Sequence record: PZ445431.1 | Reading direction: 5' to 3' (one strand) | DNA: 64,000 nt | Source: a phage | Part shown: positions 11,790-43,605 of the stretch, piece after piece | Numbering within the stretch: the stretch's first letter is position 1 | Layout of the letters: every line of letters starts with the position of its first letter | Program-made: the position numbers and the translations under genes | The notes under the pieces: model-generated | Told to the model about the DNA's origin: nothing | Seen by the model: the letters and a program-made list of their open reading frames with translations, nothing else | Database searches by the model: none

Positions 11790-11809
11790 TAAATAAATTA
11801 AAAATTCAC

Positions 11810-11838
11810 TTGCTTAAAGCCCTCGAATTTAGTATAAT
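11810..11838 (+). promoter_or_regulatory. T5-type early promoter
   Basis: AAAATTCACTTGCTTAAAGCC...TAGTATAAT; -35 at 11810, -10 at 11833. Confidence 0.7.
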
Positions 11839-11865
11839 ATTCGTATTGAAAGTGAGGAGGGCTTT

Positions 11866-12144
11866 ATGCGAATTTACAACTCAAATTCATTAGGATTTAA
11901 ACCTTTGAGAAAACGCGCACAATCTCCGCGTCAGATCAGAAAGGCAAATATTGGTGAGCCAGAAACTAGGCTTCCACCACCTCCGGAGCAACGTCTAGTT
12001 TACCTAGATGAAGAGTTAGCCGAAAGGGAACGCAAAGCTCAAGAAGAAATTGAGCGTAAGAAACTGTGTACTGCTCCTGCGTATAACAAGGGTGGTTATC
12101 AATACGTTTCCAGTGAGGAACAAGCTAAGATGATCGGCAGATAA
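11866..12144 (+). CDS. hypothetical protein (92 aa)
   Basis: ORF directly after a consensus early promoter with GAGGAGG RBS. Confidence 0.55.
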   Translation: MRIYNSNSLGFKPLRKRAQSPRQIRKANIGEPETRLPPPPEQRLVYLDEELAERERKAQEEIERKKLCTAPAYNKGGYQYVSSEEQAKMIGR

Positions 12145-12160
12145 TTTTTAAAAAATTCAT

Positions 12161-12189
12161 TTGCTAAACGCTTCAAAATTTAGTATAAT
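12161..12189 (+). promoter_or_regulatory. T5-type early promoter
   Basis: TTGCTA 12161-12166, TATAAT 12184-12189. Confidence 0.7.
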
Positions 12190-12227
12190 ATATCTCATAA
12201 ATTGATCAACAAAAAGGAAAACAAATA

Positions 12228-12743
12228 ATGGCTAAGCAGAAAAACGCAAAAACTCAGGCAGCTCCGGCAGTTAAAACTTTCGCTCAGACCGAAGCCAATC
12301 GTAAGGCTCGTCTGGAACGTCATCTGCGTAAGCATCCTAGCGATGCTCAGGCTCAGACTGCTCTGAAGTCTCCGGTTCCGATTCGTCAGAAGCCGAAGGC
12401 TAAGAACTCCACTCGCGCAACTGCTAAGCAGGTTGTGTTCATCAAGGGTGAAGGTCATAAGTCTGTACCGGTAACTCTGAGCTTTAACGGAGGTGCTGAG
12501 ATGTTCGCCCGCAACGGTATGGCTCTGAAAGATTACGAAAAAGCAGTCAATCAGAAGCGTAAGCCAATGGCTGACGTAATGCGTGAATCCCGTGGACAGT
12601 TTGGCTCCGTTAAACCGAATATCTTCGGGGTAGAGTATAGCCGTGACAACGTTCGCGCTCTGTGCTATGGTATCGGTATTAAGTTTACTGGTGCTTCTGA
12701 TCGTAAATCCACTAAACCTGCTCGTAAGCGTAAAGCGAAGTAA
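12228..12743 (+). CDS. hypothetical basic protein (171 aa), probable highly expressed early protein
   Basis: Lys/Arg-rich; codon choice dominated by CTG/CGT/AAA; consensus promoter upstream and GNRA-loop hairpin terminator downstream. Confidence 0.6.
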   Translation: MAKQKNAKTQAAPAVKTFAQTEANRKARLERHLRKHPSDAQAQTALKSPVPIRQKPKAKNSTRATAKQVVFIKGEGHKSVPVTLSFNGGAEMFARNGMALKDYEKAVNQKRKPMADVMRESRGQFGSVKPNIFGVEYSRDNVRALCYGIGIKFTGASDRKSTKPARKRKAK

Positions 12744-12749
12744 TGATTG

Positions 12750-12767
12750 ATGGGGCGAAAGCCCCAT
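12750..12767 (+). terminator. hairpin terminator with GAAA tetraloop
   Basis: ATGGGGC-GAAA-GCCCCAT perfect 7 bp stem. Confidence 0.6.
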
Positions 12768-12804
12768 ATACTAACTCTTTCTCTGACTAATTAAGGATAT
12801 TTTT

Positions 12805-13020
12805 ATGTTCTCTAAGAAACCACGTTCCGTTACTGAAATCGTTGCTTCCTTTACCACTATTACTGATGAACTTCAAGCTCGTATTGAAGCTGACCAGAAA
12901 ACTGCTGCTGATATTCAGAAACAGCAGGAAGAACTCGCTCTGAAACTGGCTGAAACCAATAAGAGTGAAAAATCTGCTCAAACTATTAAGGAAAATATCC
13001 TTAAACTGCTGGGCAAGTAA
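12805..13020 (+). CDS. hypothetical protein (71 aa)
   Basis: ORF with AAGGA RBS between two GAAA-tetraloop hairpins. Confidence 0.55.
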   Translation: MFSKKPRSVTEIVASFTTITDELQARIEADQKTAADIQKQQEELALKLAETNKSEKSAQTIKENILKLLGK

Positions 13021-13027
13021 TTTAAAT

Positions 13028-13052
13028 CAGGGGGCGAAAGCCCCTCTTATTT
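13028..13052 (+). terminator. hairpin terminator with GAAA tetraloop
   Basis: GGGGGC-GAAA-GCCCC followed by TCTTATTT. Confidence 0.6.
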
Positions 13053-13061
13053 GGAGAAACT

Positions 13062-13274
13062 ATGCGTAACTTCGTTGCAAAGAATGATTTTAACCGTGCT
13101 AGCACTCACAAGTCTGCTAGAGACTACACTCGTCTTTCTAAACATGAGCTTCTAGAAGAAATCATGGAAGAAAACTGGGATGTTAGTGAAAATGGAACAG
13201 ACCTGTTTGAAGAAGGGGAACTTCCTCTGAAAGACCCCAAACAGTGGGAGTCTATTAAAGAGACAGCTCTTTAA
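13062..13274 (+). CDS. hypothetical protein (70 aa)
   Basis: ORF with GGAGAAA RBS. Confidence 0.5.
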   Translation: MRNFVAKNDFNRASTHKSARDYTRLSKHELLEEIMEENWDVSENGTDLFEEGELPLKDPKQWESIKETAL

Positions 13275-13304
13275 TAGTTTTCTACAACAATAAAGGACAT
13301 AATT

Positions 13305-14006
13305 ATGAAATTCAAGCCCTTTGGTATGCTGGACATTGAATCTCTAGGTACTCCAGGAAATTGCGGTACTACTCATATTGCAATGCCTTCTTTCGCTTTT
13401 GTAGCGATGCACGGAATTGATAAAGATCCTGATCTGGTATTCGTTACTCTAGACGTTCAAGATCAGCTTAATGCGGGTGCTAAGGTAACTGCCTCTACTA
13501 TTGCATTCTGGATGGATCAAGCTAAAAACAGTCCATCTGCGCTCCATATTATGGAGGCTCTAAATGGTCGTAATCCTAAACTGATTGCCTTCCGTGATGG
13601 TAAGCATCACTGCACTAATGACGTAGGCTCTAATTATGCTGCCTTCTCTATGGCTCAGAACATTATGGAATTGTCTCTAGGAGATAATGCTCTGTATTAC
13701 GGCAATGGCCCAGAGTTTGATATGACTATCTACTCTGCAAATACGTTCCATGCCGGAACCCATGAAGAAGTAGTTCCGTGGAAATTCTGGAACTTAGGTA
13801 ATGTTCGATCTTTCCGTAATCAATGGATGCAAGCTGGTTATAGTTATAAAGATCTAGAAGCCGAAGGTGCTAGCTGGGCAAAAGCTAAAATGGAAAAGAT
13901 GGATACCATTCGTTATGGAATCTATCCAGTTAAACATGATCCAGCATTCGATGCTTTAGTTGAAAGTTATTGTGTAGCCATCATGATCGAAAAAATCAAA
14001 ATTTGA
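13305..14006 (+). CDS. putative DEDDh-type 3'-5' exonuclease-like protein
   Basis: Exo I-like MLDIESLG near N-terminus and C-terminal H-x4-D (KHDPAFD); weak, motif-only. Confidence 0.35.
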   Translation: MKFKPFGMLDIESLGTPGNCGTTHIAMPSFAFVAMHGIDKDPDLVFVTLDVQDQLNAGAKVTASTIAFWMDQAKNSPSALHIMEALNGRNPKLIAFRDGKHHCTNDVGSNYAAFSMAQNIMELSLGDNALYYGNGPEFDMTIYSANTFHAGTHEEVVPWKFWNLGNVRSFRNQWMQAGYSYKDLEAEGASWAKAKMEKMDTIRYGIYPVKHDPAFDALVESYCVAIMIEKIKI

Positions 14007-14007
14007 T

Positions 14008-14036
14008 TTGCTTTCAGCTCCAAAATTCTGTATAAT
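14008..14036 (+). promoter_or_regulatory. T5-type early promoter
   Basis: TTGCTT 14008-14013, TATAAT 14031-14036, then leader CATAAATTTGAGAGAACAA. Confidence 0.7.
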
Positions 14037-14076
14037 ATATTCATAAATTTGAGAGAACAACAAAAGGAAAATAATT

Positions 14077-14259
14077 ATGCCAGTATCTAAAAACGTCCGT
14101 AAAAATGGTAAAGTAGCAAAACGTAACCTGGGTCTGCGTCGTATGGCTGAGCGTCAGTCCGGCATCCAGAAAATCTTTAATGTACTGAATCGCACCAACC
14201 CGAATATTGATAACAGTTCTGATACTGTTCTGCGCACTCTGCTCGCAATCGGTCTGTAA
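14077..14259 (+). CDS. hypothetical small basic protein (60 aa)
   Basis: ORF downstream of consensus promoter with AAAGGAAA RBS. Confidence 0.5.
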   Translation: MPVSKNVRKNGKVAKRNLGLRRMAERQSGIQKIFNVLNRTNPNIDNSSDTVLRTLLAIGL

Positions 14260-14313
14260 TAGACCGTTTTTAAAACAAGTTCAAATCTCAAACTTCATAT
14301 AAGGAAGCAAATA

Positions 14314-14952
14314 ATGACTACTCGTATCTCTAAAACTCGTGCTCTGGCAACTATCAAGTCTCTGGAAGCTAAAATCCGTAAAGCTACTGAACAACAGCTT
14401 TTGATTGCTGTTGGTGAAGGTAAAGACAAGAATCAAGTTGTCGTTGGTGCTGCAATCGAAGTAGATGCTCTGTCTACTCGTATTAAAACTGATTTCCAGT
14501 CTCTGCTGGATATGATGACCCAGCGTGATCATCTGAAAGCAGCGCTGATCAAGAGCAATGCTGAAACTGTTGTAGAGATCGGTTCCCGCTCTATGACTGT
14601 TGCGGAAGCAATCGAAGCTAAGCGTTCTATGGAACTCAAAGCTCAGTTGCTGGCTAACATGCGTAAGCAGTTCCATGCTGCTACTGTTAAGTTTAACACT
14701 CAAAAGGCTCAGTTTGATGCCAAGTATGAGCGTTTGCAGGATACCATGGCTACCCGTGACAAGAAGACTTCCGAGGATGAAGTTAAGATGCAGCTTAACC
14801 TGCTGGAACTCAAGAACACTCCGTTCCTGATCGATCCGCTGGAGCTGGAAAAGCTGATCAAGCAACACGACGAAGAGTACCAGGACTTTGCAACCAACGT
14901 TGACTTTGTTCTGTCTGAGTCCAACGCCTCTACTTTTATCGAAGTAGAGTAA
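14314..14952 (+). CDS. hypothetical protein (212 aa), coiled-coil-rich, probable highly expressed
   Basis: AAGGAAG RBS, host-like high-expression codon usage; antisense ORF 14281..14868 judged spurious. Confidence 0.6.
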   Translation: MTTRISKTRALATIKSLEAKIRKATEQQLLIAVGEGKDKNQVVVGAAIEVDALSTRIKTDFQSLLDMMTQRDHLKAALIKSNAETVVEIGSRSMTVAEAIEAKRSMELKAQLLANMRKQFHAATVKFNTQKAQFDAKYERLQDTMATRDKKTSEDEVKMQLNLLELKNTPFLIDPLELEKLIKQHDEEYQDFATNVDFVLSESNASTFIEVE

Positions 14953-15336
14953 TAATTTAAAAGACTAGTAAATCGGTAGACGAAAGCCCAAGCATCTTAC
15001 CTCGCAGCAGCGGTTGAAATACGAGGTTAAATAAGACCGCTGACCATACTATAAAGTATAATCTATTGGAGATTATGTTTATTACATCAGACATTTAATC
15101 TGACACGTAAAAACAAAAGGTCGTTGGTAGTACCAACACAACTTCAAAGATCAACGCTCAAGTATGAAAGCTGAAAAGTTAAAAGCACTCAAACTTCTAA
15201 CCTTCTAAAGCTAAAAGATGCAAAGTATTCGTTGATGATTCAAACCCTAGATCAAAGGTACATGGCTCATAAGATATGGCCTGTGGCGCCTCTAGGCTGT
15301 TTATCGGTTTACTAGTCTCTCAATTTAAAAATGTAT

Positions 15337-15365
15337 TTGCTAATTAGTTTAGTTTTCTATATAAT
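15337..15365 (+). promoter_or_regulatory. T5-type early promoter
   Basis: TTGCTA 15337-15342, TATAAT 15360-15365. Confidence 0.65.
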
Positions 15366-15395
15366 ATATTTTTAAATTGATGAGACGAGGCTATT

Positions 15396-15713
15396 ATGAT
15401 TTTTCATATTCTGATTGATGATGTGCGTAACCTTCATGGAATGGACATTATCATTCGAACCCCCGAAGCCGCTGTTGAGTTTCTGAATAAAACCGATACC
15501 ACAGGTCATTTCGTTTATATGGATAACGATCTGGCTGTAGATGGTATGGAAGGTTATCAAATTCTTCGTTTACTCCTAGAATTTGGTCAGAGACCCAAGA
15601 AAGTGGTACTAGTAACCTCGAACCCAGTAGCTAAAGAGACCATGCGTAATGATCTCTTAGACGAAGGGTATCAAGAAAGCCCTAATCGTATTGAGTACGA
15701 TTGGCCGGAGTAA
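15396..15713 (+). CDS. putative stand-alone CheY-like receiver (REC) domain protein
   Basis: ILIDD near N-terminus, YMDNDLAVDGMEGYQIL (acidic pocket/phospho-acceptor region resembling CheY DWNMPNMDG), LVTSN and a following Lys; shorter than canonical REC. Confidence 0.35.
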   Translation: MIFHILIDDVRNLHGMDIIIRTPEAAVEFLNKTDTTGHFVYMDNDLAVDGMEGYQILRLLLEFGQRPKKVVLVTSNPVAKETMRNDLLDEGYQESPNRIEYDWPE

Positions 15714-16168
15714 ATAAAATGAAGGCAGCTTTGCTTTTAATAGCTGCCCTAACCTATAGCTTCAATAGTCATGCGACCTACGACTCAAAGCAGATTGATT
15801 GCATTGCAAAAAATATCTACTTCGAAGCACGAGGTGAGGGCACTAAAGGAATGATCGCAGTTGCACAGGTTACTAAAAACCGTGTTAACTCTGGTACTTT
15901 TCCTAATTCTTACTGTAAAGTAGTATATCAGTCTAACCAGTTCTCTTGGGTGGCCAAGAGACCAAAAGTTGATAAAACCGATGAGGCTTGGCAAGTTGCT
16001 AAGAATTTAGCTAGAGTGATATACTACGTTGATTTACCACAAGATCCAACACATGGAGCGTTATACTTCCATAGTGGTAAAGATAAACCGTACTGGACAA
16101 AGAAGTTTAAGAAAACAACGAAGATTCAAGGCCATACGTTCTACAAGCCTGTGGTTAAGAAAACTTAA
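15701..16168 (+). CDS. secreted SleB-like cell-wall hydrolase (Hydrolase_2 family)
   Basis: Signal peptide MKAALLLIAALTYSFNSHA and the NIYFEARGEG...AVAQVTKNR signature; start probably ATG near 15719. Confidence 0.7.
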   Translation: MAGVNKMKAALLLIAALTYSFNSHATYDSKQIDCIAKNIYFEARGEGTKGMIAVAQVTKNRVNSGTFPNSYCKVVYQSNQFSWVAKRPKVDKTDEAWQVAKNLARVIYYVDLPQDPTHGALYFHSGKDKPYWTKKFKKTTKIQGHTFYKPVVKKT

Positions 16169-16176
16169 AAATTCGA

Positions 16177-16205
16177 TTGCTTAAAGCCTTAAATTTCTGT
16201 ATAAT
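16177..16205 (+). promoter_or_regulatory. T5-type early promoter
   Basis: TTGCTT 16177-16182, TATAAT 16200-16205. Confidence 0.7.
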
Positions 16206-16236
16206 ACTTTCATAAATTAATGAGAGGAAGCGAAAT

Positions 16237-16407
16237 ATGAAATCAGTTGTAATTATTGGTGTTAATACTCGTGGTATCCGTACTACGAAAACAGTTAAAA
16301 CTACTAACGTTGCTGAAATTACTACAAACCCTAAGAAGTTTGATTTCGCTAAAGTCTCGGCAGTTATGACAGAACAATCTTTTAACCAAGCACTGGGAAT
16401 TAAATAA
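16237..16407 (+). CDS. hypothetical small protein (56 aa)
   Basis: Not in ORF track (<60 aa); sits exactly behind the conserved promoter/leader ...AATTAATGAGAGGAAGCGAAATATG and is coupled (TAATG) to the next gene. Confidence 0.5.
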   Translation: MKSVVIIGVNTRGIRTTKTVKTTNVAEITTNPKKFDFAKVSAVMTEQSFNQALGIK

Positions 16408-16850
16408 TGGAAGAGAATATTCTAGATGTTTTGCGTAGGGCTTTGCAGGAATCTAAGGTTGATGGTTCTGATAAAGAAGTAGCTAAAAGCTACCAGACCA
16501 TAATCGGAGATCTTCAGCGTGTTGATAAAGACTTCATTACTTCTGAACAGTTTGTATCTTATATAAAAGCTCAACTGAAAAGCATTAATCAGACGAAAGC
16601 TAAACTTCACGGTCAAGACCTTGATAATTATAGCTTGCAGTCTGCTCAGTATGAGTATATACTGAACAAATGGCTACAACAGTATCTGCCGCCTCAGTTA
16701 TCTGATTCTGAGATTCGCAAATACTTTGCAGAATTAGTTAAGTTGAACCCTGGGATTACAAAAGGTATGCTGATGAAAGCGATTAAGGAAGAGTTTCCTG
16801 GTCGTTACGACGGTGGCATTGCTGCTCAGGTTGCTGGCGAATTTAATTAA
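16407..16850 (+). CDS. GatB/YqeY-domain protein
   Basis: C-terminal GMLMKAIKEEFPGRYDGGIAAQVA resembles YqeY; 147 aa. Confidence 0.6.
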   Translation: MEENILDVLRRALQESKVDGSDKEVAKSYQTIIGDLQRVDKDFITSEQFVSYIKAQLKSINQTKAKLHGQDLDNYSLQSAQYEYILNKWLQQYLPPQLSDSEIRKYFAELVKLNPGITKGMLMKAIKEEFPGRYDGGIAAQVAGEFN

Positions 16851-16858
16851 AAATTGAT

Positions 16859-16887
16859 TTGCTAAACGCCTCAAAATTCTGTATAAT
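16859..16887 (+). promoter_or_regulatory. T5-type early promoter driving an ORF-free segment
   Basis: TTGCTA 16859-16864, TATAAT 16882-16887. Confidence 0.7.
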
Positions 16888-17770
16888 AGATTCATAAATT
16901 AGAGAACAGCGAGCCGATTACGCTGAGTGAGTTTAGTGATTCCTACTAGGATAGCTATTCCACTGAATAGAGTCGGTGAGTTTAGAATGATCACCTGTTA
17001 GAGTTCCGAGTCCAGTCCGGTATATCCGGCCAAGTGACTAGAGTAACGAATATAGGTTCGAGACTTCTTGTAAAACTCGGGAGCTGTCCCGAAATCTCGT
17101 AAACTCTTCTCTAGTTTATGTTAGTGGGGTGTCGAACTGACTTATGTGATAACACTGCCGTCCTAGTATAAACGGTAATATCAAACCGTAACTGGTGGAA
17201 GATGCAGGTTCGAATCCTGCGGTCGGAAAGAATCAGATAACTCGGGCTTATACCGGATAAGCATTCGCTGCTGGAGTACATACTATGACGGTTCAGGAGG
17301 TACGCCACCTGATCAGTATTAGGTTAGAATCGAAACAGCTAAACCACGAGGAAACCTGACGGCCTCAACCAAACTCGGAACTCGGGATCACTGCCTAGTG
17401 TGTGCCCCGTTTAACCTGAGACTAGGCATCCAGCTTCGCATCGAAAATCGGAGGTGCGATTCTAACAGACCGCGTGAATATGAGAGTGGGAAACGCTGAC
17501 ATGAGAGATGTCACTAATGGTGCCCAATAGTACAGGTAATTCGCGATAATTCCTGTTGAGCGGCAGCAGTAGGCTGGGAGTCATGACCTAAGCCTAACCG
17601 AGTTCTTCACATACGGAGAACATAACCACAAAGTCACCCTGACTTAAACTGGAAGATATTGTCTGACGGAAGGGCTGCAGAGCTTAATCTGAGGGGGCTG
17701 ACCCTACCTACCATCGGGTATCTTTAAGAGCTTTTTCGAGAGTTCTTAAAAATACCTAACAAAAGGAATC
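16888..17770 (+). ncRNA. candidate structured non-coding RNA region (no ORF >=60 aa on the sense strand)
   Basis: About 0.88 kb directly downstream of consensus promoter 16859-16887; contains tRNA-like T-arm GCAGGTTCGAATCCTGC (17204-17220) without a pairing acceptor stem and several short hairpins. Confidence 0.35.
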
Positions 17771-17773
17771 AAT

Positions 17774-18283
17774 ATGAATCTAGGAACAACTTGTATCTTT
17801 GATCATCAAGAAATGTGTTGCCCTCGTATTCTGCATATAGCACATTTCTCTGAACGATTGACACTTGATCAAGCTCGCGAGAAAATGAGTGAGATTACAG
17901 GATATAATTTTCGAGAAGGTGAATACTTTAGCGTAGCTTTGGATTACATCGACAATACTCGTCTTTATCACCTAGTTCAGCTTGGTGAAGAAACTGATGA
18001 AGTAAAAATGGCGAAAGATACATTACGTCGTTATCGCCCGCAGATTCTAGAGAGTACACTTCGCGGAGAGCCTAGTGATTACTTCTATATGCGCTGTTAT
18101 GACGCAGATGCACAAGAATACATGGCACATCAACGTTTCTACCACGATATTAAAGAGTTCGTTAATATCAAGTATGACAAGCTATTGATTGACTCTAAAG
18201 CACAACGTGCAGCTAAAAATGCTGAGAAATCTGCTAAAGAAGCTGTTGAAAGTCAAACTAAATTGAATAAAGTCATTAAATGA
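17774..18283 (+). CDS. hypothetical protein (169 aa)
   Basis: ORF with AAAAGGAA RBS. Confidence 0.55.
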   Translation: MNLGTTCIFDHQEMCCPRILHIAHFSERLTLDQAREKMSEITGYNFREGEYFSVALDYIDNTRLYHLVQLGEETDEVKMAKDTLRRYRPQILESTLRGEPSDYFYMRCYDADAQEYMAHQRFYHDIKEFVNIKYDKLLIDSKAQRAAKNAEKSAKEAVESQTKLNKVIK

Positions 18284-18291
18284 TTAACTTT

Positions 18292-18363
18292 CGGGGTGTA
18301 GTCTAAGGGATAGGCAGGAGTCTTCTAAATTCCTTTATGCAGGTTCGAATCCTGTCACCTCGG
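18292..18363 (+). tRNA. tRNA-Arg (anticodon UCU, read by eye)
   Basis: Acceptor CGGGGTG/CACCTCG (one G-U), anticodon arm GGAGT-CTTCTAA-ATTCC, T-arm GCAGG-TTCGAAT-CCTGT, encoded CCA. Confidence 0.55.
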
Positions 18364-18392
18364 CCAATTTTATTAACTGCTAGGAAAATAAA

Positions 18393-18593
18393 GTGAAAAC
18401 ACGATATATAGTAAAAGTAGTAGGTGAACATTCACAAGTAAATACCACCGATGTTACAGCGCTAGCATTTGAAGTAGTCTCCGGTATAGTCATATTTCAT
18501 AACGGAGATATCAAAGCTCCTGAATTTGCTGTGGATGCTAGCCTGTTTATTTCTGCAACTAAAGTAACTGTAGTAGCTAACTCTTCTAAATAA
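18393..18593 (+). CDS. hypothetical protein (66 aa)
   Basis: ORF track only. Confidence 0.4.
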   Translation: MKTRYIVKVVGEHSQVNTTDVTALAFEVVSGIVIFHNGDIKAPEFAVDASLFISATKVTVVANSSK

Positions 18594-18604
18594 TAAGGAA
18601 ATAT

Positions 18605-19549
18605 ATGTTTACTAAAAACACTAAAGAACTGACTTCCGATCAAAAAGTAATTCGTACTATTAAACGTTGGGGCGTTGGTGCTGTAGTTGGTCTTGGCGCT
18701 CTTATTCTGGCTCTCAATTCCTATACAGTTGTTCAGGACGGTACGGTTAAAACTCAGACTTTCCTGGGTAAAGTTAGTCCTAATCCTGTATTGCCGGGGT
18801 TCCATATTGTCAACCCATTCGCCTCTTTTGATACTTTTAGTACGAAAGATATTTCTATGAAACTGGATAAACTTCAGGTTCCTAGCCAGGATAAGTTTAA
18901 GTCCACTGTTGACATTACCGTTATGTTGCAGTTTGATGGTGCTAAAGCTCCTATGAACCGTGTTAACGCAGGTACTCAGGATCAAGCTCTGAACAAGTAC
19001 GTTGAAGAGAAGATGCTATCTACGATTCGTGAGTTTGGTAAGTCTGTACCAAAAGCACAAGATCTGTTCGACGCTAAGATTCAGGCTCAACTGCAAACTG
19101 CTATTCAGCAAGAAGTAGAAGAGTACGCGCGTCCTTATGGTTACACGGTTAAGCAAGTATTCCTTCAGGATATTACTCTGCCACCTGTAATCATGGAACA
19201 GGTACAAAACACAAAAGTTCGTGAAGAACAAGTTAACGCCGCTAAAGCTGAATTGGCTCGTGTTGAACAAGAAGCACAGCAGAAAGTTAAGCAAGCTGAA
19301 GCTGATCGTTCTGCTCGTGAAAACATGGCAGTAGCTAACGAACGTGACGCAGATGCTAAACTGTACGCAGCTAAGAAAGAAGCTGAAGCTAACGCCGCGC
19401 TGCAACGTACCATTACTCCTGAAATGATTCGTTGGAAGCAGCTGGAAGTTGAAATGCTTCGTGCTGAAAAATACCAAGGTGGTGTACCGCAGACTGTTGT
19501 TGGTACTGGCTACGATGGTCAAATGATCATGGATATGCGTAACAAGTAA
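18605..19549 (+). CDS. SPFH/band-7 (prohibitin/HflKC-like) membrane protein
   Basis: N-terminal TM helix, then VVQDGTVK...LPGFHIVNPF SPFH core and long Ala/Glu/Gln-rich coiled-coil tail. Confidence 0.7.
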   Translation: MFTKNTKELTSDQKVIRTIKRWGVGAVVGLGALILALNSYTVVQDGTVKTQTFLGKVSPNPVLPGFHIVNPFASFDTFSTKDISMKLDKLQVPSQDKFKSTVDITVMLQFDGAKAPMNRVNAGTQDQALNKYVEEKMLSTIREFGKSVPKAQDLFDAKIQAQLQTAIQQEVEEYARPYGYTVKQVFLQDITLPPVIMEQVQNTKVREEQVNAAKAELARVEQEAQQKVKQAEADRSARENMAVANERDADAKLYAAKKEAEANAALQRTITPEMIRWKQLEVEMLRAEKYQGGVPQTVVGTGYDGQMIMDMRNK

Positions 19550-19572
19550 TAGTTACACGTAATCTTCGAACC

Positions 19573-19612
19573 AAGCCCGCGTTTCCTCTGAGAGCGCGGG
19601 CTTTTCTGTATT
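19573..19612 (+). terminator. rho-independent terminator
   Basis: AAGCCCGCG ... CGCGGGCTT stem followed by TTCTGTATTT. Confidence 0.7.
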
Positions 19613-19752
19613 TAAGGCAAAAGAAAAGCCCATAAGTTATTCAACTAAGGTCTTTAGTATTTAATTCTTTAGAATCATATACTATTATTTCAGCAACAAC
19701 GTGCTGCCCTTAAGTGCCCTGCGATTTTCCTCTAAAAAGTTAAAAAATTCGA

Positions 19753-19781
19753 TTGCTTGAATGCTAAATTCTCTGTATAAT
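19753..19781 (+). promoter_or_regulatory. T5-type early promoter upstream of nadR-like gene
   Basis: TTGCTT 19753-19758, TATAAT 19776-19781. Confidence 0.7.
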
Positions 19782-19811
19782 ATATTTATAAATTTGAGAG
19801 AGGAATCAAAT

Positions 19812-20867
19812 ATGATTAAGACTGGTCTAGTAATTGGTAAGTTCGCACCATTAACACGTGGTCATATTAACCTAATAAACACAGCAGCAACTATGTGTGA
19901 ACGAGTTATAGTTGTAGTTAGTCATGATAATCGCTGGCTGGATAAACAAAACACACGTGATCAGGAAGTCTTACAGTTAAAGAACCGACTTCGTTGGTTA
20001 GAACAAACTTACGCGGATATTGAGCACATTTCGGTAGAGTACATTATTGAAGATGATATTCCTGAATATCCGAATGGTTGGCCGGAATATGCTAGAATAC
20101 TTAATGAAAATTATGGACATTTGCCTGAGATCACCATTTTCTCTAGCGAACTAGACTATGATGCAGAATATAAGAAATATCTGCCGAAGTTTGGTCATTA
20201 TATTGTAGATTCTGATCGGACTCGTGTTCCAATCTCAGCTACAATGATTCGTAATGATCTTATGAAGTATTGGGAGTTTCTTCCTAGCGTAGTTCGTAAA
20301 GATTACGTGCGTAAGGTTGTAATCATTGGGACTGAAAGCTCGGGAAAGACTACTTTAACAAAATACCTTGCGAAGCTATACAACACTTCGTGGGTAGAAG
20401 AATATGGTCGAACGTATTGTGAAGTTGATCTAGTTGGTAACGAAAATCTGCTTACCAGCGAAGATTATAGTAAAATTGCGTTCAGACACAAAGAGCTAGA
20501 GTTTGAAGCAGAACGTACTGCAAATAAGATCATGTTTGTGGATACAAATGCTTTTATTACTGAGTTCTACCACAGACTTTATGAACATAGTAAGAATCCT
20601 GTGGTTACAGCAATTGCAAAAGAAGAACATTATGATTTAGTAATTGTTCTAGCGCCTACTGTCAAGTGGGTAGATGATGGTTTACGTATTAACTCCGATC
20701 GTTCAATTACTTCTGAACTGTTCGAGCAGATGAAGAAAGAATTTCCAAATCAGTTCCCTGAAGGGCGTACTGTTTACATCGACTCTCCGGACTACAAAGT
20801 TCGTATGGACGAAGCAGTAAACGCAGTAGACTGGCTGATTCATCACTTTAACGTTGGAGAGTTTTAA
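19812..20867 (+). CDS. nadR: NadR-like bifunctional NMN adenylyltransferase / ribosylnicotinamide kinase (no HTH domain)
   Basis: GKFAPLTRGHINLI nucleotidyltransferase motif and VVIIGTESSGKTTLTKYLAKLYNTSWVEEYGR P-loop closely matching NadR; start ATG 19812 after conserved leader GAGAGAGGAATCAAAT. Confidence 0.8.
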   Translation: MIKTGLVIGKFAPLTRGHINLINTAATMCERVIVVVSHDNRWLDKQNTRDQEVLQLKNRLRWLEQTYADIEHISVEYIIEDDIPEYPNGWPEYARILNENYGHLPEITIFSSELDYDAEYKKYLPKFGHYIVDSDRTRVPISATMIRNDLMKYWEFLPSVVRKDYVRKVVIIGTESSGKTTLTKYLAKLYNTSWVEEYGRTYCEVDLVGNENLLTSEDYSKIAFRHKELEFEAERTANKIMFVDTNAFITEFYHRLYEHSKNPVVTAIAKEEHYDLVIVLAPTVKWVDDGLRINSDRSITSELFEQMKKEFPNQFPEGRTVYIDSPDYKVRMDEAVNAVDWLIHHFNVGEF

Positions 20868-20868
20868 T

Positions 20869-21546
20869 ATGACTAACTATCTCGTAAATGACTTTAAAAA
20901 CTGGAAACCTCTGGAATATCTGTGGCTGTTCATAGCGGTTGTCTTCATTAGTTTAGCAAACTATAATGGTACAGCTCTAGATTGGGCTACTGCAATAACC
21001 AATGTGGTTTGTGTTATTCTGGTTGCAAAAGGACGTGTTTCCAACTATATTTGGGGCTTAGTGGGTGTTCTTACATATGGTATTACAGCTTTAAACGCAG
21101 ATCTTTATGGTAACGCTGCACTAAACCTGCTATACTACGTTCCTATGCAGTTTTATGGAATGTACTTATGGCATAAAAATAAGCCAAGTAATCTGCCGGA
21201 TGTTCCAACTAAGGTTCTGACTAAAGCCCAAGCTCTGCTGACTCTAGGGATTCTAGCAGTAGCCACGTTAGGGTATGGTAGTTTCTTAGCTACTACGGCT
21301 GATCCATTTCCAATGTTGGATGCATTTACTGCGGTAGGTAGTGTGATCGCTATGTGGCTTATGGTTAAGCAGTATGCCGAGCAGTGGCTGATCTGGATTG
21401 CTATTAACATTGGTACTGTGTACATTTGGCTTGTAACTGCTCAATCTACAGGTGCATCTTATGCAATCCTAGCAATGTGGCTAGTATTCTTAGGTAACTC
21501 TATTATGGGAGCCTATAAAGGATACTTTGTACGCGTTAACAAATAA
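20869..21546 (+). CDS. pnuC: PnuC-family nicotinamide riboside transporter
   Basis: Multi-TM 226 aa protein with Trp-rich PnuC-like helices, immediately downstream of the nadR-like gene. Confidence 0.7.
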   Translation: MTNYLVNDFKNWKPLEYLWLFIAVVFISLANYNGTALDWATAITNVVCVILVAKGRVSNYIWGLVGVLTYGITALNADLYGNAALNLLYYVPMQFYGMYLWHKNKPSNLPDVPTKVLTKAQALLTLGILAVATLGYGSFLATTADPFPMLDAFTAVGSVIAMWLMVKQYAEQWLIWIAINIGTVYIWLVTAQSTGASYAILAMWLVFLGNSIMGAYKGYFVRVNK

Positions 21547-21580: not shown

Positions 21581-21593
21581 CAGAAATTTTCAC

Positions 21594-21622
21594 TTGCTTA
21601 ATATAGAAAATTTCTGTATAAT
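21594..21622 (+). promoter_or_regulatory. T5-type early promoter
   Basis: TTGCTT 21594-21599, TATAAT 21617-21622. Confidence 0.7.
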
Positions 21623-21652
21623 ATATTTATAAATTTGAGAGAGGAATCAAAT

Positions 21653-21949
21653 ATGAAACGCATTGTACTTGCATTGACTCTAGTATCTACTTCTGTATTT
21701 GCTGCTCCACAACAGGAACTTTGTCAAGTTCAAGTTTGTAATAAGCTAGAACGATTTACTCTAGACATTTGGTCACATATTAAAGATAATATGGGTGAAC
21801 AGTGTTTTGATATTGTTCTGCCAAAAGAACAAGCTGTTCCTGGTGCTGTTCTCAGTTCAGAATCACGTTGGTGGCAGGGTTCTTCTATCAATCCAACTAA
21901 GAAGTCAGTGACACGTATCAAACAAGTATATCAGTGCAATGTTCAGTAA
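21653..21949 (+). CDS. secreted small Cys-containing protein
   Basis: Signal peptide MKRIVLALTLVSTSVFA; four Cys; conserved promoter/leader upstream. Confidence 0.6.
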   Translation: MKRIVLALTLVSTSVFAAPQQELCQVQVCNKLERFTLDIWSHIKDNMGEQCFDIVLPKEQAVPGAVLSSESRWWQGSSINPTKKSVTRIKQVYQCNVQ

Positions 21950-21957
21950 AATTTCAC

Positions 21958-21986
21958 TTGCTTAATGCCGAAATTTTCTGTATAAT
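21958..21986 (+). promoter_or_regulatory. T5-type early promoter driving tRNA-Ser/tRNA-CAU
   Basis: TTGCTT 21958-21963, TATAAT 21981-21986; tRNA starts 15 nt downstream. Confidence 0.7.
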
Positions 21987-22000
21987 ATATTCATAATTTC

Positions 22001-22091
22001 GGAAGATTAACCCTAAAGGTAAGGGAGCTGTTTGCTAAACAGCTAGTAGCTGTGGAAACACGGTGTGCCAGTTCGAGTCTGGCATCTTCCT
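22001..22091 (+). tRNA. tRNA-Ser (anticodon GCU), type II
   Basis: Perfect acceptor GGAAGAT/ATCTTCC, anticodon arm GCTGT-TTGCTAA-ACAGC, long variable arm, T-arm GCCAG-TTCGAGT-CTGGC, encoded CCA. Confidence 0.75.
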
Positions 22092-23241: not shown

Positions 23242-23271
23242 CTCCTCCAAGCAGAAATTTTAAAAATGTAC

Positions 23272-23301
23272 TTGCTTTTTACTTAAGATTTCTGCTATAA
23301 T
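23272..23301 (+). promoter_or_regulatory. T5-type early promoter (N18 spacing)
   Basis: TTGCTT 23272-23277, TATAAT 23296-23301. Confidence 0.6.
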
Positions 23302-23330
23302 AGTTATATAAGTTGATGAGAGGAATCAGA

Positions 23331-23597: not shown

Positions 23598-23642
23598 TTT
23601 GATTAACTGATACAGCACTGAGCAAGTTCTTTAAAATTTGAC

Positions 23643-23671
23643 TTGCTCAGTCCTTCAAAACTTGATATAAT
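23643..23671 (+). promoter_or_regulatory. T5-type early promoter driving tRNA-Tyr/Glu cluster
   Basis: TTGCTC 23643-23648, TATAAT 23666-23671. Confidence 0.65.
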
Positions 23672-23735
23672 AGTTATCTAATTTGGAAAACATATTTAAA
23701 AGTGTTTAAACTAGTATTTGAATATTTCTAAATAT

Positions 23736-24087: not shown

Positions 24088-24366
24088 ATGCTGATGCATC
24101 CTGAAAACTTCTTTATTTACTGTGCGGATAAGTCACTGAAACGCAGAATTAACAAAGTCTATCATTATCGTGCTAGTCAACAGCCTTATGTTTATGCTTT
24201 TGATGGAGATTACATCCCACTAGAACAGTTGGCCTGTGATTACATGGTTTTGAAGAACTTTGACGAGACAAAGATCTCAAGCGTTCATAATCGACAGAAC
24301 CCGTTAACGTGGAAATATAAGAAGAAAAAGAAAGGCATCAAATTCTTAAAAAATGTAGTTGCTTAA
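24088..24366 (+). CDS. hypothetical protein (about 92 aa)
   Basis: GAAGGAG RBS then ATG; 3' end overlaps the next promoter. Confidence 0.5.
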   Translation: MLMHPENFFIYCADKSLKRRINKVYHYRASQQPYVYAFDGDYIPLEQLACDYMVLKNFDETKISSVHNRQNPLTWKYKKKKKGIKFLKNVVA

Positions 24367-24387
24367 CCGCTTAAAGTTCTGTATAAT
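24359..24387 (+). promoter_or_regulatory. T5-type early promoter embedded in the 3' end of a CDS
   Basis: TTGCTT 24359-24364, TATAAT 24382-24387. Confidence 0.65.
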
Positions 24388-24416
24388 TATTACATAAATT
24401 GAACTGGAGAAGCAAC

Positions 24417-25926: not shown

Positions 25927-26000
25927 ACATCCATAGCTCAATTGGTTAGAGCTACCGCCTCTTAAGCGGTAGGTTCTAGGTTCAAGTCCTTCATTGGAGA
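25927..26000 (+). tRNA. tRNA-Lys-like (anticodon CUU); acceptor/T stems imperfect
   Basis: Canonical D-arm GCTCAATTGGTTAGAGC and anticodon arm ACCGC-CTCTTAA-GCGGT; acceptor pairing poor by eye. Confidence 0.4.
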
Positions 26001-26010
26001 CCAAACAATT

Positions 26011-27143: not shown

Positions 27144-27252
27144 AGAAGAAGCTCCAGATGATGATGTATTTATGCAAAGCATGCACTCTGGGAGTTCTGA
27201 TATGTTATTTGTTAAAGATGTACGACATATCCAAGAAGTGGTAAAAACGCAG

Positions 27253-27281
27253 TTGCTTAATGCTTAATTTCTTGTTATAAT
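27253..27281 (+). promoter_or_regulatory. T5-type early promoter driving ORF-free/tRNA-like segment
   Basis: TTGCTT 27253-27258, TATAAT 27276-27281. Confidence 0.7.
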
Positions 27282-27284
27282 ATT

Positions 27285-27615
27285 TATATAAATTGATGCG
27301 AAAATAGCTGCCTAGATACCAGGTGTATGACGTCTACACTAGCAGAGCTACCGAAAAAGAGATCCTCAGGATAAACGTCGTAGCAAAATTAGTCTGGTAT
27401 CCATTAATTTAGTTCACTAAGGTATTAGCTCGACCTAGGACTGGCTGCCAAAAAGCACGATCCCTACGATTTGGGAGAAGTTCTAGATTAGTCCACTAGA
27501 TTCAGCGGCAACTGAATAGTGTATCGGGTTTGTGAAGAGCAGCTATTCTCTACTGGCTAATGTCTGAGGTTAGTACGCACACCGAGCTAATAGCCTTAGT
27601 AAACTTAAAGAATTT
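27285..27615 (+). ncRNA. candidate non-coding RNA (ORF-free segment downstream of consensus promoter)
   Basis: About 330 nt with no ORF >=60 aa after promoter 27253-27281; long-range complement GATACCAG (27308) / CTGGTATC (27394) and hairpin ATTCAG-CGGCAA-CTGAAT. Confidence 0.35.
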
Positions 27616-29384: not shown

Positions 29385-29403
29385 CCAAAATTAAAAAATT
29401 CAT

Positions 29404-29432
29404 TTGCCTTCTCTCTTATTTCTTGTTATTAT
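29404..29432 (+). promoter_or_regulatory. early promoter variant (TTGCCT-N17-TATTAT)
   Basis: -35 at 29404-29409, -10 at 29427-29432. Confidence 0.55.
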
Positions 29433-29462
29433 ATTTATATAAATTAATGAGAGGGAAACCAA

Positions 29463-34396: not shown

Positions 34397-34412
34397 TGTA
34401 ATAAAATTTCAG

Positions 34413-34441
34413 TTGCTCAGATGCCACAAGTATTGTATAAT
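34413..34441 (+). promoter_or_regulatory. T5-type early promoter
   Basis: TTGCTC 34413-34418, TATAAT 34436-34441. Confidence 0.65.
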
Positions 34442-34472
34442 ATGTTTATAGATTGAGGCAAAAGGATAATTT

Positions 34473-37267: not shown

Positions 37268-37327
37268 CCTAAAATTCTTCTTGACAACGACAAAAAATTG
37301 TGCTCCAGAAGTGATCTTAAAAAACAC

Positions 37328-37357: not shown

Positions 37358-37381
37358 GGTAGTGGTTAGAGGAGGTTACAA

Positions 37382-38448: not shown

Positions 38449-38458
38449 TAATAAATCA

Positions 38459-38482
38459 AGGCGGGGTAATTCCCGCCTTTTA
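38459..38482 (+). terminator. rho-independent terminator
   Basis: GGCGGG-GTAATT-CCCGCC followed by TTTT. Confidence 0.7.
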
Positions 38483-38523
38483 AAGCAAAGGGGGCTTTAA
38501 AAACTTAATGATAGGAGAAAGCC

Positions 38524-38940: not shown

Positions 38941-38953
38941 TATAAAAAAGTAG

Positions 38954-38982
38954 TTGACTTTCCGCTGAAATTTTTATATAAT
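38954..38982 (+). promoter_or_regulatory. early promoter (TTGACT-N17-TATAAT)
   Basis: -35 at 38954-38959, -10 at 38977-38982. Confidence 0.7.
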
Positions 38983-39015
38983 ATTTGTATAAATTGAATC
39001 AGAGGAGTTTCACAA

Positions 39016-40230: not shown

Positions 40231-40238
40231 TAAATCCA

Positions 40239-40268
40239 ACCCAGATCTTAGCTGATCTGGGTTTTTTA
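40239..40268 (+). terminator. rho-independent terminator
   Basis: ACCCAGATC-TTAGCT-GATCTGGGT followed by TTTTTATT. Confidence 0.75.
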
Positions 40269-40272
40269 TTAC

Positions 40273-40301
40273 TTGCTTTCTGCTAAAAATTTTGATATAA
40301 T
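40273..40301 (+). promoter_or_regulatory. T5-type early promoter
   Basis: TTGCTT 40273-40278, TATAAT 40296-40301. Confidence 0.7.
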
Positions 40302-40332
40302 ATATTTATAAATTGATGAGAGGAGTATCACA

Positions 40333-41576: not shown

Positions 41577-42088
41577 TGGCCGGTATTTCTCAGGAATACC
41601 TGAAGAGTAGACTAACCTATAATCCTGAAACATGGGAGTTTCGGTGGAAGCCTAACCCAAATGCTAGTAAAACATGGAATACTAGGTTTGCTGGTAAAGA
41701 AGCAGGTACTCTAAATAAAACTACCGGATATATCAATTTAACAATTGATGGGGTTAAGCATGGTGCACATAGAATGGCTTTCTTATACATGGAGGGCTAT
41801 TTACCTACTAAAGTGGATCACAAAGATACAATAAGAACAAATAATGCTTGGAGTAACCTTAGGGCTGCTGATAATGCTCAGAATACTTGGAATGCTGGTA
41901 TGAAAAGCTCCAATACTTCAGGATTTAAAGGTGTTTACTTAGATAAGCGTATAAATAAATATGTAGGTAGAGTTCGCTTTAGAGACAAAAGGTTCTCTAC
42001 TAAATATTATGAAAATGCTGAGGATGCAGCTAAAGAGTTGGAAATCCTTAGAGAACAGTTACATAAAGAATTTGCGAGGAATGAATAA
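41576..42088 (+). CDS. HNH homing endonuclease with AP2-type DNA-binding domain
   Basis: Same family as 6957, 28254, 39420; KVDHKDTIRTNNAWSNLR HNH core and AP2-like SGFKGVYLDK. Confidence 0.8.
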   Translation: MAGISQEYLKSRLTYNPETWEFRWKPNPNASKTWNTRFAGKEAGTLNKTTGYINLTIDGVKHGAHRMAFLYMEGYLPTKVDHKDTIRTNNAWSNLRAADNAQNTWNAGMKSSNTSGFKGVYLDKRINKYVGRVRFRDKRFSTKYYENAEDAAKELEILREQLHKEFARNE

Positions 42089-42686
42089 TGCGTGTTAAAT
42101 TCTGGTCGGATTTGCACTTAGACCACCCTGGAACTCTTCGCTTCCGTCCGTGGTTTAAGAATATGAAAGAACATGATGAATATATCCTAGATACTTTGTC
42201 CAAGCACATTGGCAAGCGTACTAAGCTCGTCTTGCTAGGGGATATTGCCGTGGGGCGTGAAGGGTTGGCTAAATTAAAGTCGGTTATCCACAATGTGCCT
42301 AACCAGTTAATCATGGGCAACCACGATGCTGAACGTCAGGGTCTGCATATTAAAGATCTTGTAGACGTTTATGATGATATTCAGGCTCTAGGTAAGCAAA
42401 CAGGTGGTGGCAAGAAGTTTTGGCTGTCACACTGTCACACTGTCCATTGCACGAAGCAGAACTTCGTGGTAAGCTAAACATTCACGGACATGTGCACACC
42501 AATTCTGTGCGCGACCCACGTTATATCAACATCTCTTTTGAGATGAGTAAGACTCCTATTCCTCTAGAAGATATTGTATCTGGCAAGTTCACAAGCTATG
42601 ATAGAGTAGTTAACTGCACTACTGGTGAAGTACTCCAAATCGATGAAGATGTGGCAGCAGTATTGAGGGGAGATATCAATGTTTGA
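42088..42686 (+). pseudogene. calcineurin-like metallophosphoesterase interrupted by a frameshift (8 bp tandem duplication)
   Basis: ORFs 42088..42477 (DLHLDH, GDIAVG, GNHD) and 42420..42686 (HGHVH) are two halves of one phosphoesterase; frames switch at CTGTCACA CTGTCACA (42424-42439); removing one copy restores ...FWLSHCPLHEAELRG... Confidence 0.65.
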
Positions 42687-42780
42687 TTTTGATGGTATGG
42701 CTCGTGAGATATTTATAGCAATAGGGGTAGTAGTTCTTATCTCTTTCTTTACGGGCCTAGGCTTAGGCCTTTTATTTTAA
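42679..42780 (+). CDS. possible small hydrophobic peptide (33 aa)
   Basis: ATG overlapping upstream stop (ATGTTTGA); single TM. Confidence 0.3.
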   Translation: MFDFDGMAREIFIAIGVVVLISFFTGLGLGLLF

Positions 42781-42788
42781 AACTTCAT

Positions 42789-42817
42789 TTGCTAAAATGC
42801 TTAGTTTTCTGTATAAT
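42789..42817 (+). promoter_or_regulatory. T5-type early promoter
   Basis: TTGCTA 42789-42794, TATAAT 42812-42817. Confidence 0.7.
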
Positions 42818-42847
42818 TACTTTATAAATTGATGAGAAGGAATCAAA

Positions 42848-43279
42848 ATGCAAAAGATTGATAAAGCACTTTTAATCGCAACAGCAGATAAGTTTGAGCA
42901 AGTTAAAGCTACTTTTAAGGCAGTCTTTCAGTCCTATGTTCAAGACAAATCGAACCCGATTTCTGAGCGTTTGATGATGTGGGAATGTTTTGCTTGCAAT
43001 GCTCTGCTAATTTCCGATTATAAGGGAGAAGTATCTGAGGAATTGCATGAGATCTTTATTAATGAGGATACTCCACGCTATCAGTTAGTGAACTTCCAAG
43101 ATCTAGCTGAGCAAGTTATTCCTGATGATCTTTGGGACAAGTATTACGGTGATCCTGAAGAAGATGGTATGGAACCTGAGAAGTGCATTGAACTGATCTG
43201 TAAAGATCATCCTGAAATTGCTGAGAAATTTGAGTTGGTATTTGCTTCGGAGTTCTCAGGTTTCGTTAACGATTGGTAA
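42848..43279 (+). CDS. hypothetical acidic protein (143 aa)
   Basis: ATG after conserved leader. Confidence 0.55.
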   Translation: MQKIDKALLIATADKFEQVKATFKAVFQSYVQDKSNPISERLMMWECFACNALLISDYKGEVSEELHEIFINEDTPRYQLVNFQDLAEQVIPDDLWDKYYGDPEEDGMEPEKCIELICKDHPEIAEKFELVFASEFSGFVNDW

Positions 43280-43292
43280 ATAAATAATTTAC

Positions 43293-43321
43293 TTGCTAAA
43301 TGTCCAGAAATCTTATATAAT
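43293..43321 (+). promoter_or_regulatory. T5-type early promoter
   Basis: TTGCTA 43293-43298, TATAAT 43316-43321. Confidence 0.7.
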
Positions 43322-43353
43322 ATATTTATAAATTAATGAGAGAGGAAGTTCAA

Positions 43354-43605
43354 ATGGAAAACATGACTAAAACTGAAATGGCAAACGTATTGGCTATCCT
43401 GCTGGACATGCAAGGGTTTGAAGGTCAGCTCATGAAGATGTCTATTCCGGCAATGAAAAAGATGTACGATTCTCTGAACAAGAATGCTATGGCATTCAAC
43501 CTCGCAAAACAGGAAGCACGTTTTGCGAAAGAGCATCAAGCAACTGCCGAACGTCGTGCAGCATCTTTTGAGCGTGAAGTTAAGCAACTAAAAGGTAAGA
43601 AATAA
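43354..43605 (+). CDS. hypothetical protein (83 aa)
   Basis: ATG after conserved leader; track start 43336 lies in the leader. Confidence 0.55.
   Translation: MENMTKTEMANVLAILLDMQGFEGQLMKMSIPAMKKMYDSLNKNAMAFNLAKQEARFAKEHQATAERRAASFEREVKQLKGKK

Follow-up and report, generated by a model that had tools for sequence, protein, structure and literature searches.

The stretch of phage DNA considered here (sequence record PZ445431.1; its full 64,000 nucleotides are called the window) contains, from position 11790 to 43360, many copies of a module in which the first transcribed bases recur together with the -35 and -10 promoter elements, and the question raised by this locus is why a leader should be conserved along with a promoter. 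A sequence-only reading had counted more than 25 copies in that interval, had assigned them to the strong early promoter class of phage T5 (PN25-like), and had taken conservation of the leader to imply a shared post-transcriptional signal. The copies are very probably early-class promoters for the host sigma-70 RNA polymerase, in which the leader is the initial transcribed sequence (ITS) involved in promoter escape, with a Shine-Dalgarno sequence added where a gene follows.

The module and its kinship with T5 early promoters

Twenty-six copies of one module of about 65 bp (-47 to +18) are present in the window, all scoring at least 39.9 bits (39.9-65.3) with a family-specific weight matrix. 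The matrix comprises an upstream block with the -35 element and a second block from the -10 element through +18, joined by a spacer of 16-18 bp; it was built from strict-pattern matches, and its iteration settled immediately on the 26 sites. The next best site in the window scored 11.7 bits, and the maximum of 20 shuffled windows was 8.9 bits. The strict pattern TTGCT-N18-TATAATA-N2-TTCATAAATT with at most three mismatches gave 18 matches versus 0.01 expected, and TATAAT-N6-ATAAATT with at most one mismatch gave 21 versus 0.74 expected in the window. No hidden further copies were found when the window was scanned with each half of the matrix separately. A generic sigma-70 consensus scan (50 sites versus 50.2 expected) was uninformative because TTGACA and loose thresholds were used; only the family-specific matrix separated signal from noise. 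Twenty of the 26 copies lie within 11790-43360, the ends of which are marked by the first (11810) and last (43293) -35 elements. The other six, named here by the position of the -35 element, are found at 3300, 6902 and 10404 on the + strand and at 1133, 54802 and 61701 on the - strand, so that the count of more than 25 is correct for the whole window but not for the interval. The recurrent unit and its proposed consensus are essentially borne out by the 26-copy alignment, far above chance.

With +1 numbered after T5 N25, in which TATAATAGATTCAT spans -12 to +2 (PMC7472727), the consensus over the 26 copies is tttAAAAaTt.A.TTGCTta...cct.aaatTTttgTATAATAtaTtTATAAATTga.gagA.gaa, and information content is approximately zero outside -47 to +18 and within the spacer. 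Upstream, AAAA at -45 to -42 (22-24 of 26 copies), TT at -40/-39 and A at -37 are conserved. The -35 element is TTGCTw, with TTGCT at -35 to -31 and TTGC in 25-26 copies; the spacer is 17 bp long in 24 copies and 18 bp in two, its conserved bits being a C-rich pair at -25/-24 and AAATT at -21 to -17. The -10 hexamer TATAAT (25 of 26 copies) is followed by A at -6 (23 of 26) within a -6 to -1 consensus of A t a T t T, in which T is conserved at -3 and -1. ATAAATT occupies +1 to +7, each base in 20-25 of the 26 copies, and leads into gA.GAGAgGA at +8 to +17; the conserved block ends at +18. About half of the copies have TG at -14/-13, but an extended -10 element was rejected, since this TG abuts TATAAT and the canonical site is -15/-14. 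The upstream A-tract presumably coincides with the position of the proximal subsite of an UP element, a resemblance of position only. Similarly, AAATT at -21 to -17, 4 bp upstream of the -10 hexamer, only resembles the Z-element-like AAATT contacted by the beta' zipper (PMC3173786).

The window from 11790 to 20000 is 100% identical to positions 61781-69991 of the GenBank record of Escherichia phage TrudiRoth (Bas30, MZ501109.1), a T5-like phage of the genus Epseptimavirus within the Demerecviridae, and the record contains the T5 early gene set: RNase H, thymidylate synthase, ribonucleotide reductases, a tRNA cluster, holin and endolysin, and A1/A2. The T5 RefSeq genome (NC_005859) is annotated with 'promoter' features of 75 bp that stop just short of start codons, and many of them have historical names: P-N25 (before D2), P-N26, P-H207, P-D/E33, P-F30 and P10a-P16/17. 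The matrix built from the window recovers the annotated promoters when run on T5, with PN25 scoring highest (63.8 bits). Twenty-three window copies were paired with T5 positional orthologues, most of which are annotated there as promoters; in 19 of these pairs no sequence is closer at unconstrained positions than the T5 site in the same place, the other four being paired by position alone. The T5 early promoters (PN25, PN26, P-H207, P-D/E33 and the P11-P16 series) were reportedly described by Gentz and Bujard in 1985. The consensus published for 32 promoters of AKFV33, another T5-like phage (TTGCTw, TATAATA, a spacer of 17-18 bp, AAAAATT at -43 and TAAATT at +1; PMC3326045), is the same as that found here, although its authors call the +1 region merely 'AT-rich' and present no analysis of selection or of non-coding transcripts. 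Early and late promoters of T5 differ mainly in the discriminator, and ATATT is present in all early ones (Klimuk et al. 2020, PMC7472727).

The copies in the window share with T5 early promoters the TTGCTw element, the 17-bp spacer, TATAATA, the A-tract at -43, the ATATT-type discriminator, ATAAATT at +1, an ATG near +25, and orthologous positions before early genes. They differ by a drift of 21-24% at unconstrained positions and by one extra copy tied to a nadR-pnuC cassette. The PN25-like assignment is thus confirmed: the family and its consensus have been described before, and these are known promoters in a newly sequenced relative. By analogy with T5, they would be transcribed by host sigma-70 polymerase with early kinetics from the predicted +1. 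Seventeen annotated + strand genes begin 20-34 nucleotides (nt) past a predicted start, 13 of them at 23-27 nt, whereas the other 79 annotated + strand genes are operon-internal and have ordinary AGGA/GGAG ribosome-binding sites without ATAAATT or a long GAGAGGA run. It is therefore fair to say that the module stands before most early transcription units. The ribosome-binding site and ATG, described earlier as part of the unit, belong to most copies but not to six, which stand before tRNAs, long leaders or non-coding stretches that resemble stable RNAs.

The early promoters of T4, A1 of T7 and PL of lambda are also read early by host polymerase, and likewise have upstream A-tracts and conservation that extends past both hexamers. 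Their start regions are another matter in T4, where TATAAT-N6-ATAAATT was found 0 times versus 0.58 expected in the first 22 kb (1-22 kb) and the start regions differ, so the ITS motif is not a general property of strong E. coli phage promoters. A second, smaller promoter type at 46547 and 49464 (+ strand) and 3107 (- strand) of the window has TTGACA or TTGACG, a spacer of 17-18 bp and TATAAT without the ATAAATT start region; its counterpart in T5 is the TTGACA-type promoter, found for example before nrdD.

Selection on the start region

The family is under selection, and its start region is among the most strongly constrained parts. Among the 23 orthologous pairs of TrudiRoth and T5 sites, the fraction of mismatched positions in each region was:

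-10 hexamer: 0.7%
+1 to +7: 2.5%
-35 hexamer: 4.3%
upstream A-tract region: 11.6%
discriminator: 15.9%
+8 to +18: 19.4%
upstream flank: 21.4%
spacer: 23.6%
+19 to +24: 28.3%

Leader conservation could be explained without function if a single cassette had been duplicated recently, or if the module were a mobile promoter, so that the copies had lacked time to diverge, but this is extremely improbable. At unconstrained positions (flanks, mid-spacer and +19 to +45), identity of 19 copies to the T5 orthologue is 52-98%, whereas identity to the best paralogue in the window is 38-54%, indicating that the paralogues are saturated; moreover, no information is left beyond the edges of the module or within the spacer, and the family occurs in phages with an A1 protein merely 32% identical. 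The single exception, which does speak for duplication, is the pair of copies at 19753 and 21594, whose identical 44-nt 3' parts (CTGTATAAT...ATGA, within 19743-19815 and 21584-21656) bracket a cassette of nadR-like and pnuC genes (19812-21546) that is missing from T5 at this location. This arrangement suggests that the cassette was inserted together with a duplication or conversion of the promoter. Recent duplication, which the sequence-only reading had named as what would undo its argument, is excluded for the family by the closer similarity of orthologues than paralogues and by the region-wise mismatches, and so conservation of the leader is functional. The copies are independent promoters that have been maintained since ancient times, each at the head of its own early transcription unit.

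The module is also present in Pectobacterium phage DU_PP_V, a member of another subfamily, and part of it in Vibrio phage PG07, the A1 protein of which is 32.5% identical. In PG07 the -35 element has become TTGCCA or TAGCCA through drift and only a weak A-tract remains, but the part further downstream (the -10 hexamer, A at -6, and ATAAAnTGA) has been kept. As a guard against circularity, PG07 sites in the first half of the genome, outside the half with the replication genes, were picked without reference to downstream sequence (loose -35, 17 bp, TATAAT); 24 sites were found on the early strand versus one on the other strand. All 24 have A at -6; A, T, A, A and A at +1 to +5 are each present in 19-22 of the 24, +6 is variable, and T at +7, G at +8 and A at +9 are present in 22, 16 and 19, respectively. 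A separate pattern count in PG07 gave 18 matches versus 0.27 expected. The start block is selected as strongly as the -10 and -35 hexamers are, and across the Demerecviridae, down to Vibrio phages, it outlasts both the -35 element and the upstream A-tract.

What the leader may do

The module combines in about 72 bp an A-tract (-45 to -42), the non-consensus -35 element TTGCTw, a 17-bp spacer with AAATT (-21 to -17), a consensus TATAAT with A at -6, an A+T-rich discriminator, an A start, ATAAATT (+1 to +7) and a purine run (+9 to +17). In the proposed mechanism, the ITS would set the rate at which RNA polymerase exits from a very tightly bound promoter, as experiments on T5 N25 lead one to expect. 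Where a protein gene lies downstream, the purine run is also shaped into a GAGGA Shine-Dalgarno core, with ATG at about +25 and a minimal, unstructured leader of 24 nt. When +3 to +20 of N25 was replaced, purified polymerase made about 10-fold less full-length RNA and the escape half-life rose from about 3 min to about 45 min (PMC12464699, from the Hsu laboratory, citing Kammerer 1986). The conserved leader of the window corresponds to the 'downstream sequence region' of N25, the sequence whose replacement impairs escape about 10-fold. That work swapped +3 to +20 in one promoter; the present comparison adds the family-wide conservation of the heptamer and its persistence in Vibrio phages. The escape mechanism is borrowed from published work on this one member and would extend to the others by analogy. 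The functional conservation of the leader is most simply explained at the level of transcription initiation.

Several points weigh against this explanation. Block replacement of +3 to +20 in N25 does not single out the heptamer as the part that matters, and ATAAATT is a much narrower sequence than the description 'A+T-rich, purine-rich' requires. In a large study of randomised ITS, escape was slow when T's stood among the first seven bases, frequently with G after them (TG near +5/+6), and T at +2 was slow in lacUV5 (PMC5961368), so that ATAAATTG is no obvious generic fast-escape sequence. The T5 promoters with a TTGACA -35 element (P-H22, P12, K28b, nrdD and holin) and the T4 early promoters function without ATAAATT, which makes it a class feature and not a requirement of the polymerase. 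Finally, the start sites in TrudiRoth are predicted by analogy with N25.

It is unlikely that the 5' AUAAAUU(GA) acts mainly after transcription, as an A/U-rich translational enhancer (through ribosomal protein S1) or as a determinant of stability at the 5' end of the mRNA. A/U-rich enhancers upstream of Shine-Dalgarno sequences exist, and the 20-34 nt leaders of the 17 annotated + strand genes have their AU-rich stretch adjoining the Shine-Dalgarno sequence; the leaders are unstructured, which would favour initiation, and the same block stands at the same distance from ATG in unrelated phage contigs (among the matches listed). However, the heptamer is kept equally well where no start codon is near: ATAAATT matches average 6.17 of 7 at the six promoters of the window that precede tRNAs, stable RNAs or long leaders versus 6.25 of 7 at short-leader mRNA promoters, and 6.0 of 7 at eleven T5 promoters without a nearby start codon versus 6.1 at short-leader mRNA promoters. 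Purine richness at +9 to +17 is likewise 0.80 at non-coding or long-leader copies versus 0.87 at short-leader mRNA copies. In contrast, the Shine-Dalgarno core is present in none of the six non-coding or long-leader copies versus 18 of the 20 others, and occurs only where ATG follows near +25. Since ATAAATT is kept equally before coding and non-coding transcripts, translation cannot be the force that maintains it; its conservation is not tied to a nearby start codon, as that of a translational enhancer would be. Furthermore, the 79 internal genes are translated without the heptamer, and the ITS effect of N25 appears with purified polymerase alone.

Structure prediction of the leader RNA, which had been proposed as a check, gave no signal: no excess of structure was found from -24 to +21 around promoter-proximal starts (mean z -0.05 versus shuffles), and promoter-proximal and internal gene starts showed no difference in folding (p = 0.38). 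Rfam matches were to tRNAs only, with no regulatory RNA family. A TTGAT..ATCAA hairpin with the Shine-Dalgarno sequence in its loop is present in only about five copies, whose TTGAT-GAGAGGA-ATCAA shaped the consensus first proposed. A structured regulatory leader (riboswitch, attenuator or protein-binding hairpin) was rejected, as there is neither a conserved structure nor an Rfam family. The claim that leader conservation implies a shared post-transcriptional signal is unsupported as stated, given the equality of the heptamer at coding and non-coding transcripts, the lack of structure, and the role of this sequence in N25 escape. The 5' AUAAAUU may still add something to translation or stability, though the data can be explained without this.

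The discriminator and ITS could instead tag a temporal class for a phage factor that acts on polymerase, such as gpT5.026, or on DNA, such as D5, allowing joint shut-off or modulation of early genes, though this too is improbable. The motif goes with the TTGCTw class of -35 elements and is missing from the TTGACA-type promoters of the same genome; the discriminator is where T5 early and late promoters mainly part; and gpT5.026 decreases polymerase binding to a -5/+2 segment about 8-fold and shifts the balance of early and late transcription (Klimuk et al., PMC7472727). The block is kept across Demerecviridae of different hosts, which share early genes as well. What counts against such a tag emerged from an exact-pattern scan of IMG/VR, the results of which hold among the matches listed; single matches there are compatible with chance, and the comparison was confined to loci that have several copies in register. 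Loci without T5-like proteins (L073, L111, L093, L115, L113, L020, L078, L023, L052, L068, L103 and L122) have two to five in-register copies each of TATAAT-A-N5-ATAAATTGA-purines-ATG, one such locus having 5 matches versus 0.59 expected. The -35 hexamers in these contigs are TTGACA, TTGACT, TTTACT, TATACA and GTTTAC, and some of the contigs encode a T4-type gp32 SSB, RIIA, a helicase like Dda or a DNA polymerase that is not of the T5 type. The presence of the block in contigs that are not T5-like argues for a target in the host machinery over a T5-family protein. That ATAAATTGA at +1 to +9 with A at -6 is a discrete, sequence-specific element read by a universal host component, a 'start module' of virulent phages that arose convergently or spread horizontally, is nevertheless quite unlikely. 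If it were so, the candidate readers would be sigma-70 region 2, for which it would be a pause or anchor site resembling a -10 element, the core of the polymerase while it scrunches, or the 30S subunit with S1 on a minimal leader.

TAAATT at +2 to +7 resembles a -10 hexamer in sequence, and TAAATT is the -10 element of lambda PR'. It is highly unlikely, however, that it serves as a -10-like element on the non-template strand, rebound by sigma-70 region 2 to programme a pause near +16 to +18. Initially transcribed regions with -10-like elements are established sites of sigma-dependent pausing (PMC3326312, PMC3173786), the conserved block ends at +18, and in the Vibrio phage T-A-A-A-n-T varies where a -10 element tolerates change, with the key A and the final T in 22 of 24 sites. 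Yet no report of such a pause was found for N25, although it has been heavily studied; escape at N25 is described as taking place at about +11, the abortive products being 2-10 nt long (PMC12464699); and in the enteric phages conservation covers the whole ITS heptamer, not just the key -10-like positions. The explanation by promoter escape is therefore preferred to these others at the strength given at the outset.

The 26 copies and the genome that carries them

The GenBank record of TrudiRoth has no promoter annotation, unlike the T5 RefSeq record, and the present analysis supplies the missing transcription-unit map in the form of 26 promoters with predicted start sites. Each line gives the module, its strand, the predicted start, what follows, and the T5 orthologue where there is one.

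1081-1145, - strand: start 1098; ATG 1076 (93-aa hypothetical protein) after a leader of 22 nt; T5 55728
3288-3352, + strand: start 3335 with ITS GTAAGTT; 67-nt leader before the PhoH-like gene at 3402; T5 53692
6890-6954, + strand: start 6937; TTG 6957 (homing endonuclease); T5 50115
10392-10456, + strand: start 10439; ATG 10463
11798-11862, + strand: start 11845; ATG 11866; first in the interval; T5 46391
12149-12213, + strand: start 12196; ATG 12228; T5 P-H207
13996-14060, + strand: start 14043; ATG 14077 after a leader of 34 nt; T5 44447
15325-15389, + strand: start 15372; ATG 15396; T5 43121
16165-16229, + strand: start 16212; ATG 16237; T5 P-D/E33
16847-16911, + strand: start 16894; no open reading frame, an RNAX-like non-coding stretch and then tRNA-Arg; ATAAATT kept without a Shine-Dalgarno core; T5 P16-17
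19741-19805, + strand: start 19788; ATG 19812 (NadR-like adenylyltransferase); upstream half orthologous to T5 P15a
21582-21646, + strand: start 21629; ATG 21653; 3' 44 nt identical to the copy at 19753
21946-22010, + strand: start 21993 with ITS ATAATTT; tRNA-Ser from 22001; T5 P15b
23260-23325, + strand: 18-bp spacer; start 23308; ATG 23331; T5 P15c
23631-23695, + strand: start 23678 with ITS CTAATTT; precedes tRNA-Tyr (23736); T5 P14a
24347-24411, + strand: start 24394; ATG 24417; T5 P14b
27241-27305, + strand: start 27288; non-coding stretch, then tRNA-Ala and tRNA-Leu; T5 P13b (which precedes RNA2H)
29392-29456, + strand: -35 TTGCCT and -10 TATTAT; start 29439; ATG 29463; T5 P11
32280-32344, + strand: start 32327; ATG 32351; T5 26776
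34401-34465, + strand: start 34448; ATG 34473 (232 aa); T5 24497
38942-39006, + strand: -35 TTGACT; start 38989; ATG 39016; T5 19422
40261-40325, + strand: start 40308; in-frame TTG 40333; T5 18604
42777-42841, + strand: start 42824; ATG 42848; T5 P-F30
43281-43345, + strand: start 43328; ATG 43354; last in the interval; T5 16299
54749-54814, - strand: weak -35 TAGCCA and 18-bp spacer; start 54766; non-coding transcript with DnaA boxes; T5 6051
61649-61713, - strand: start 61666; ATG 61643 (superinfection-exclusion protein gene); top score in the window, 65.3 bits

Some of these sites have features of their own. The TTG at 40333 is 25 nt past the predicted start of the 40273 copy and lies behind GAGAGGAG, in the usual geometry of the family; to judge by this, the GenBank start at about 40393, 60 nt downstream of the TTG, may be too late. 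The approximately 880-nt non-coding transcript of the 16859 copy contains a borderline tRNA-like Rfam match at 17157-17228 on the + strand (29.3 bits, threshold 29), over which GenBank places a hypothetical coding sequence on the - strand (17111-17281). The window has five exact DnaA boxes (TTATCCACA), four of which fall in two small, oppositely oriented clusters at 50787-50868 (+ strand) and 54631-54700 (- strand), the latter within the non-coding transcript of the 54802 copy; their location resembles the region of the T5 injection stop, the boundary of first-step transfer.

The window and the GenBank record differ in length at one point: 979 bp present in MZ501109.1 between two copies of tRNA-Lys(AAG) are missing from the window (25927-26003, junction near 25990), apparently through a deletion between the repeats or a collapse in the assembly. 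Annotations of the record downstream of this point, from window position 25991 on, therefore need to be shifted, the window coordinate being the record-locus coordinate minus 979. Several promoters that seemed to lie within annotated genes were an artefact of this offset, and none of those re-checked was intragenic after the shift. The last 482 bases of the window (63519-64000) are the first 482 bases of the linear GenBank record, in the gene for the small terminase subunit. Because the window continues beyond the end of the record into its beginning, it must have been cut from a circularised or permuted copy. Terminal repeats of the T5 type are not shown in the MZ501109.1 record.

N25 is widely used both in expression vectors and in biochemical work on promoter escape. 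The results do not overturn the current understanding of such promoters. Throughout the family, and whatever is transcribed, conservation of the first seven bases of the transcript is as tight as that of the -10 hexamer, and the start element merits dissection base by base rather than by block swaps.

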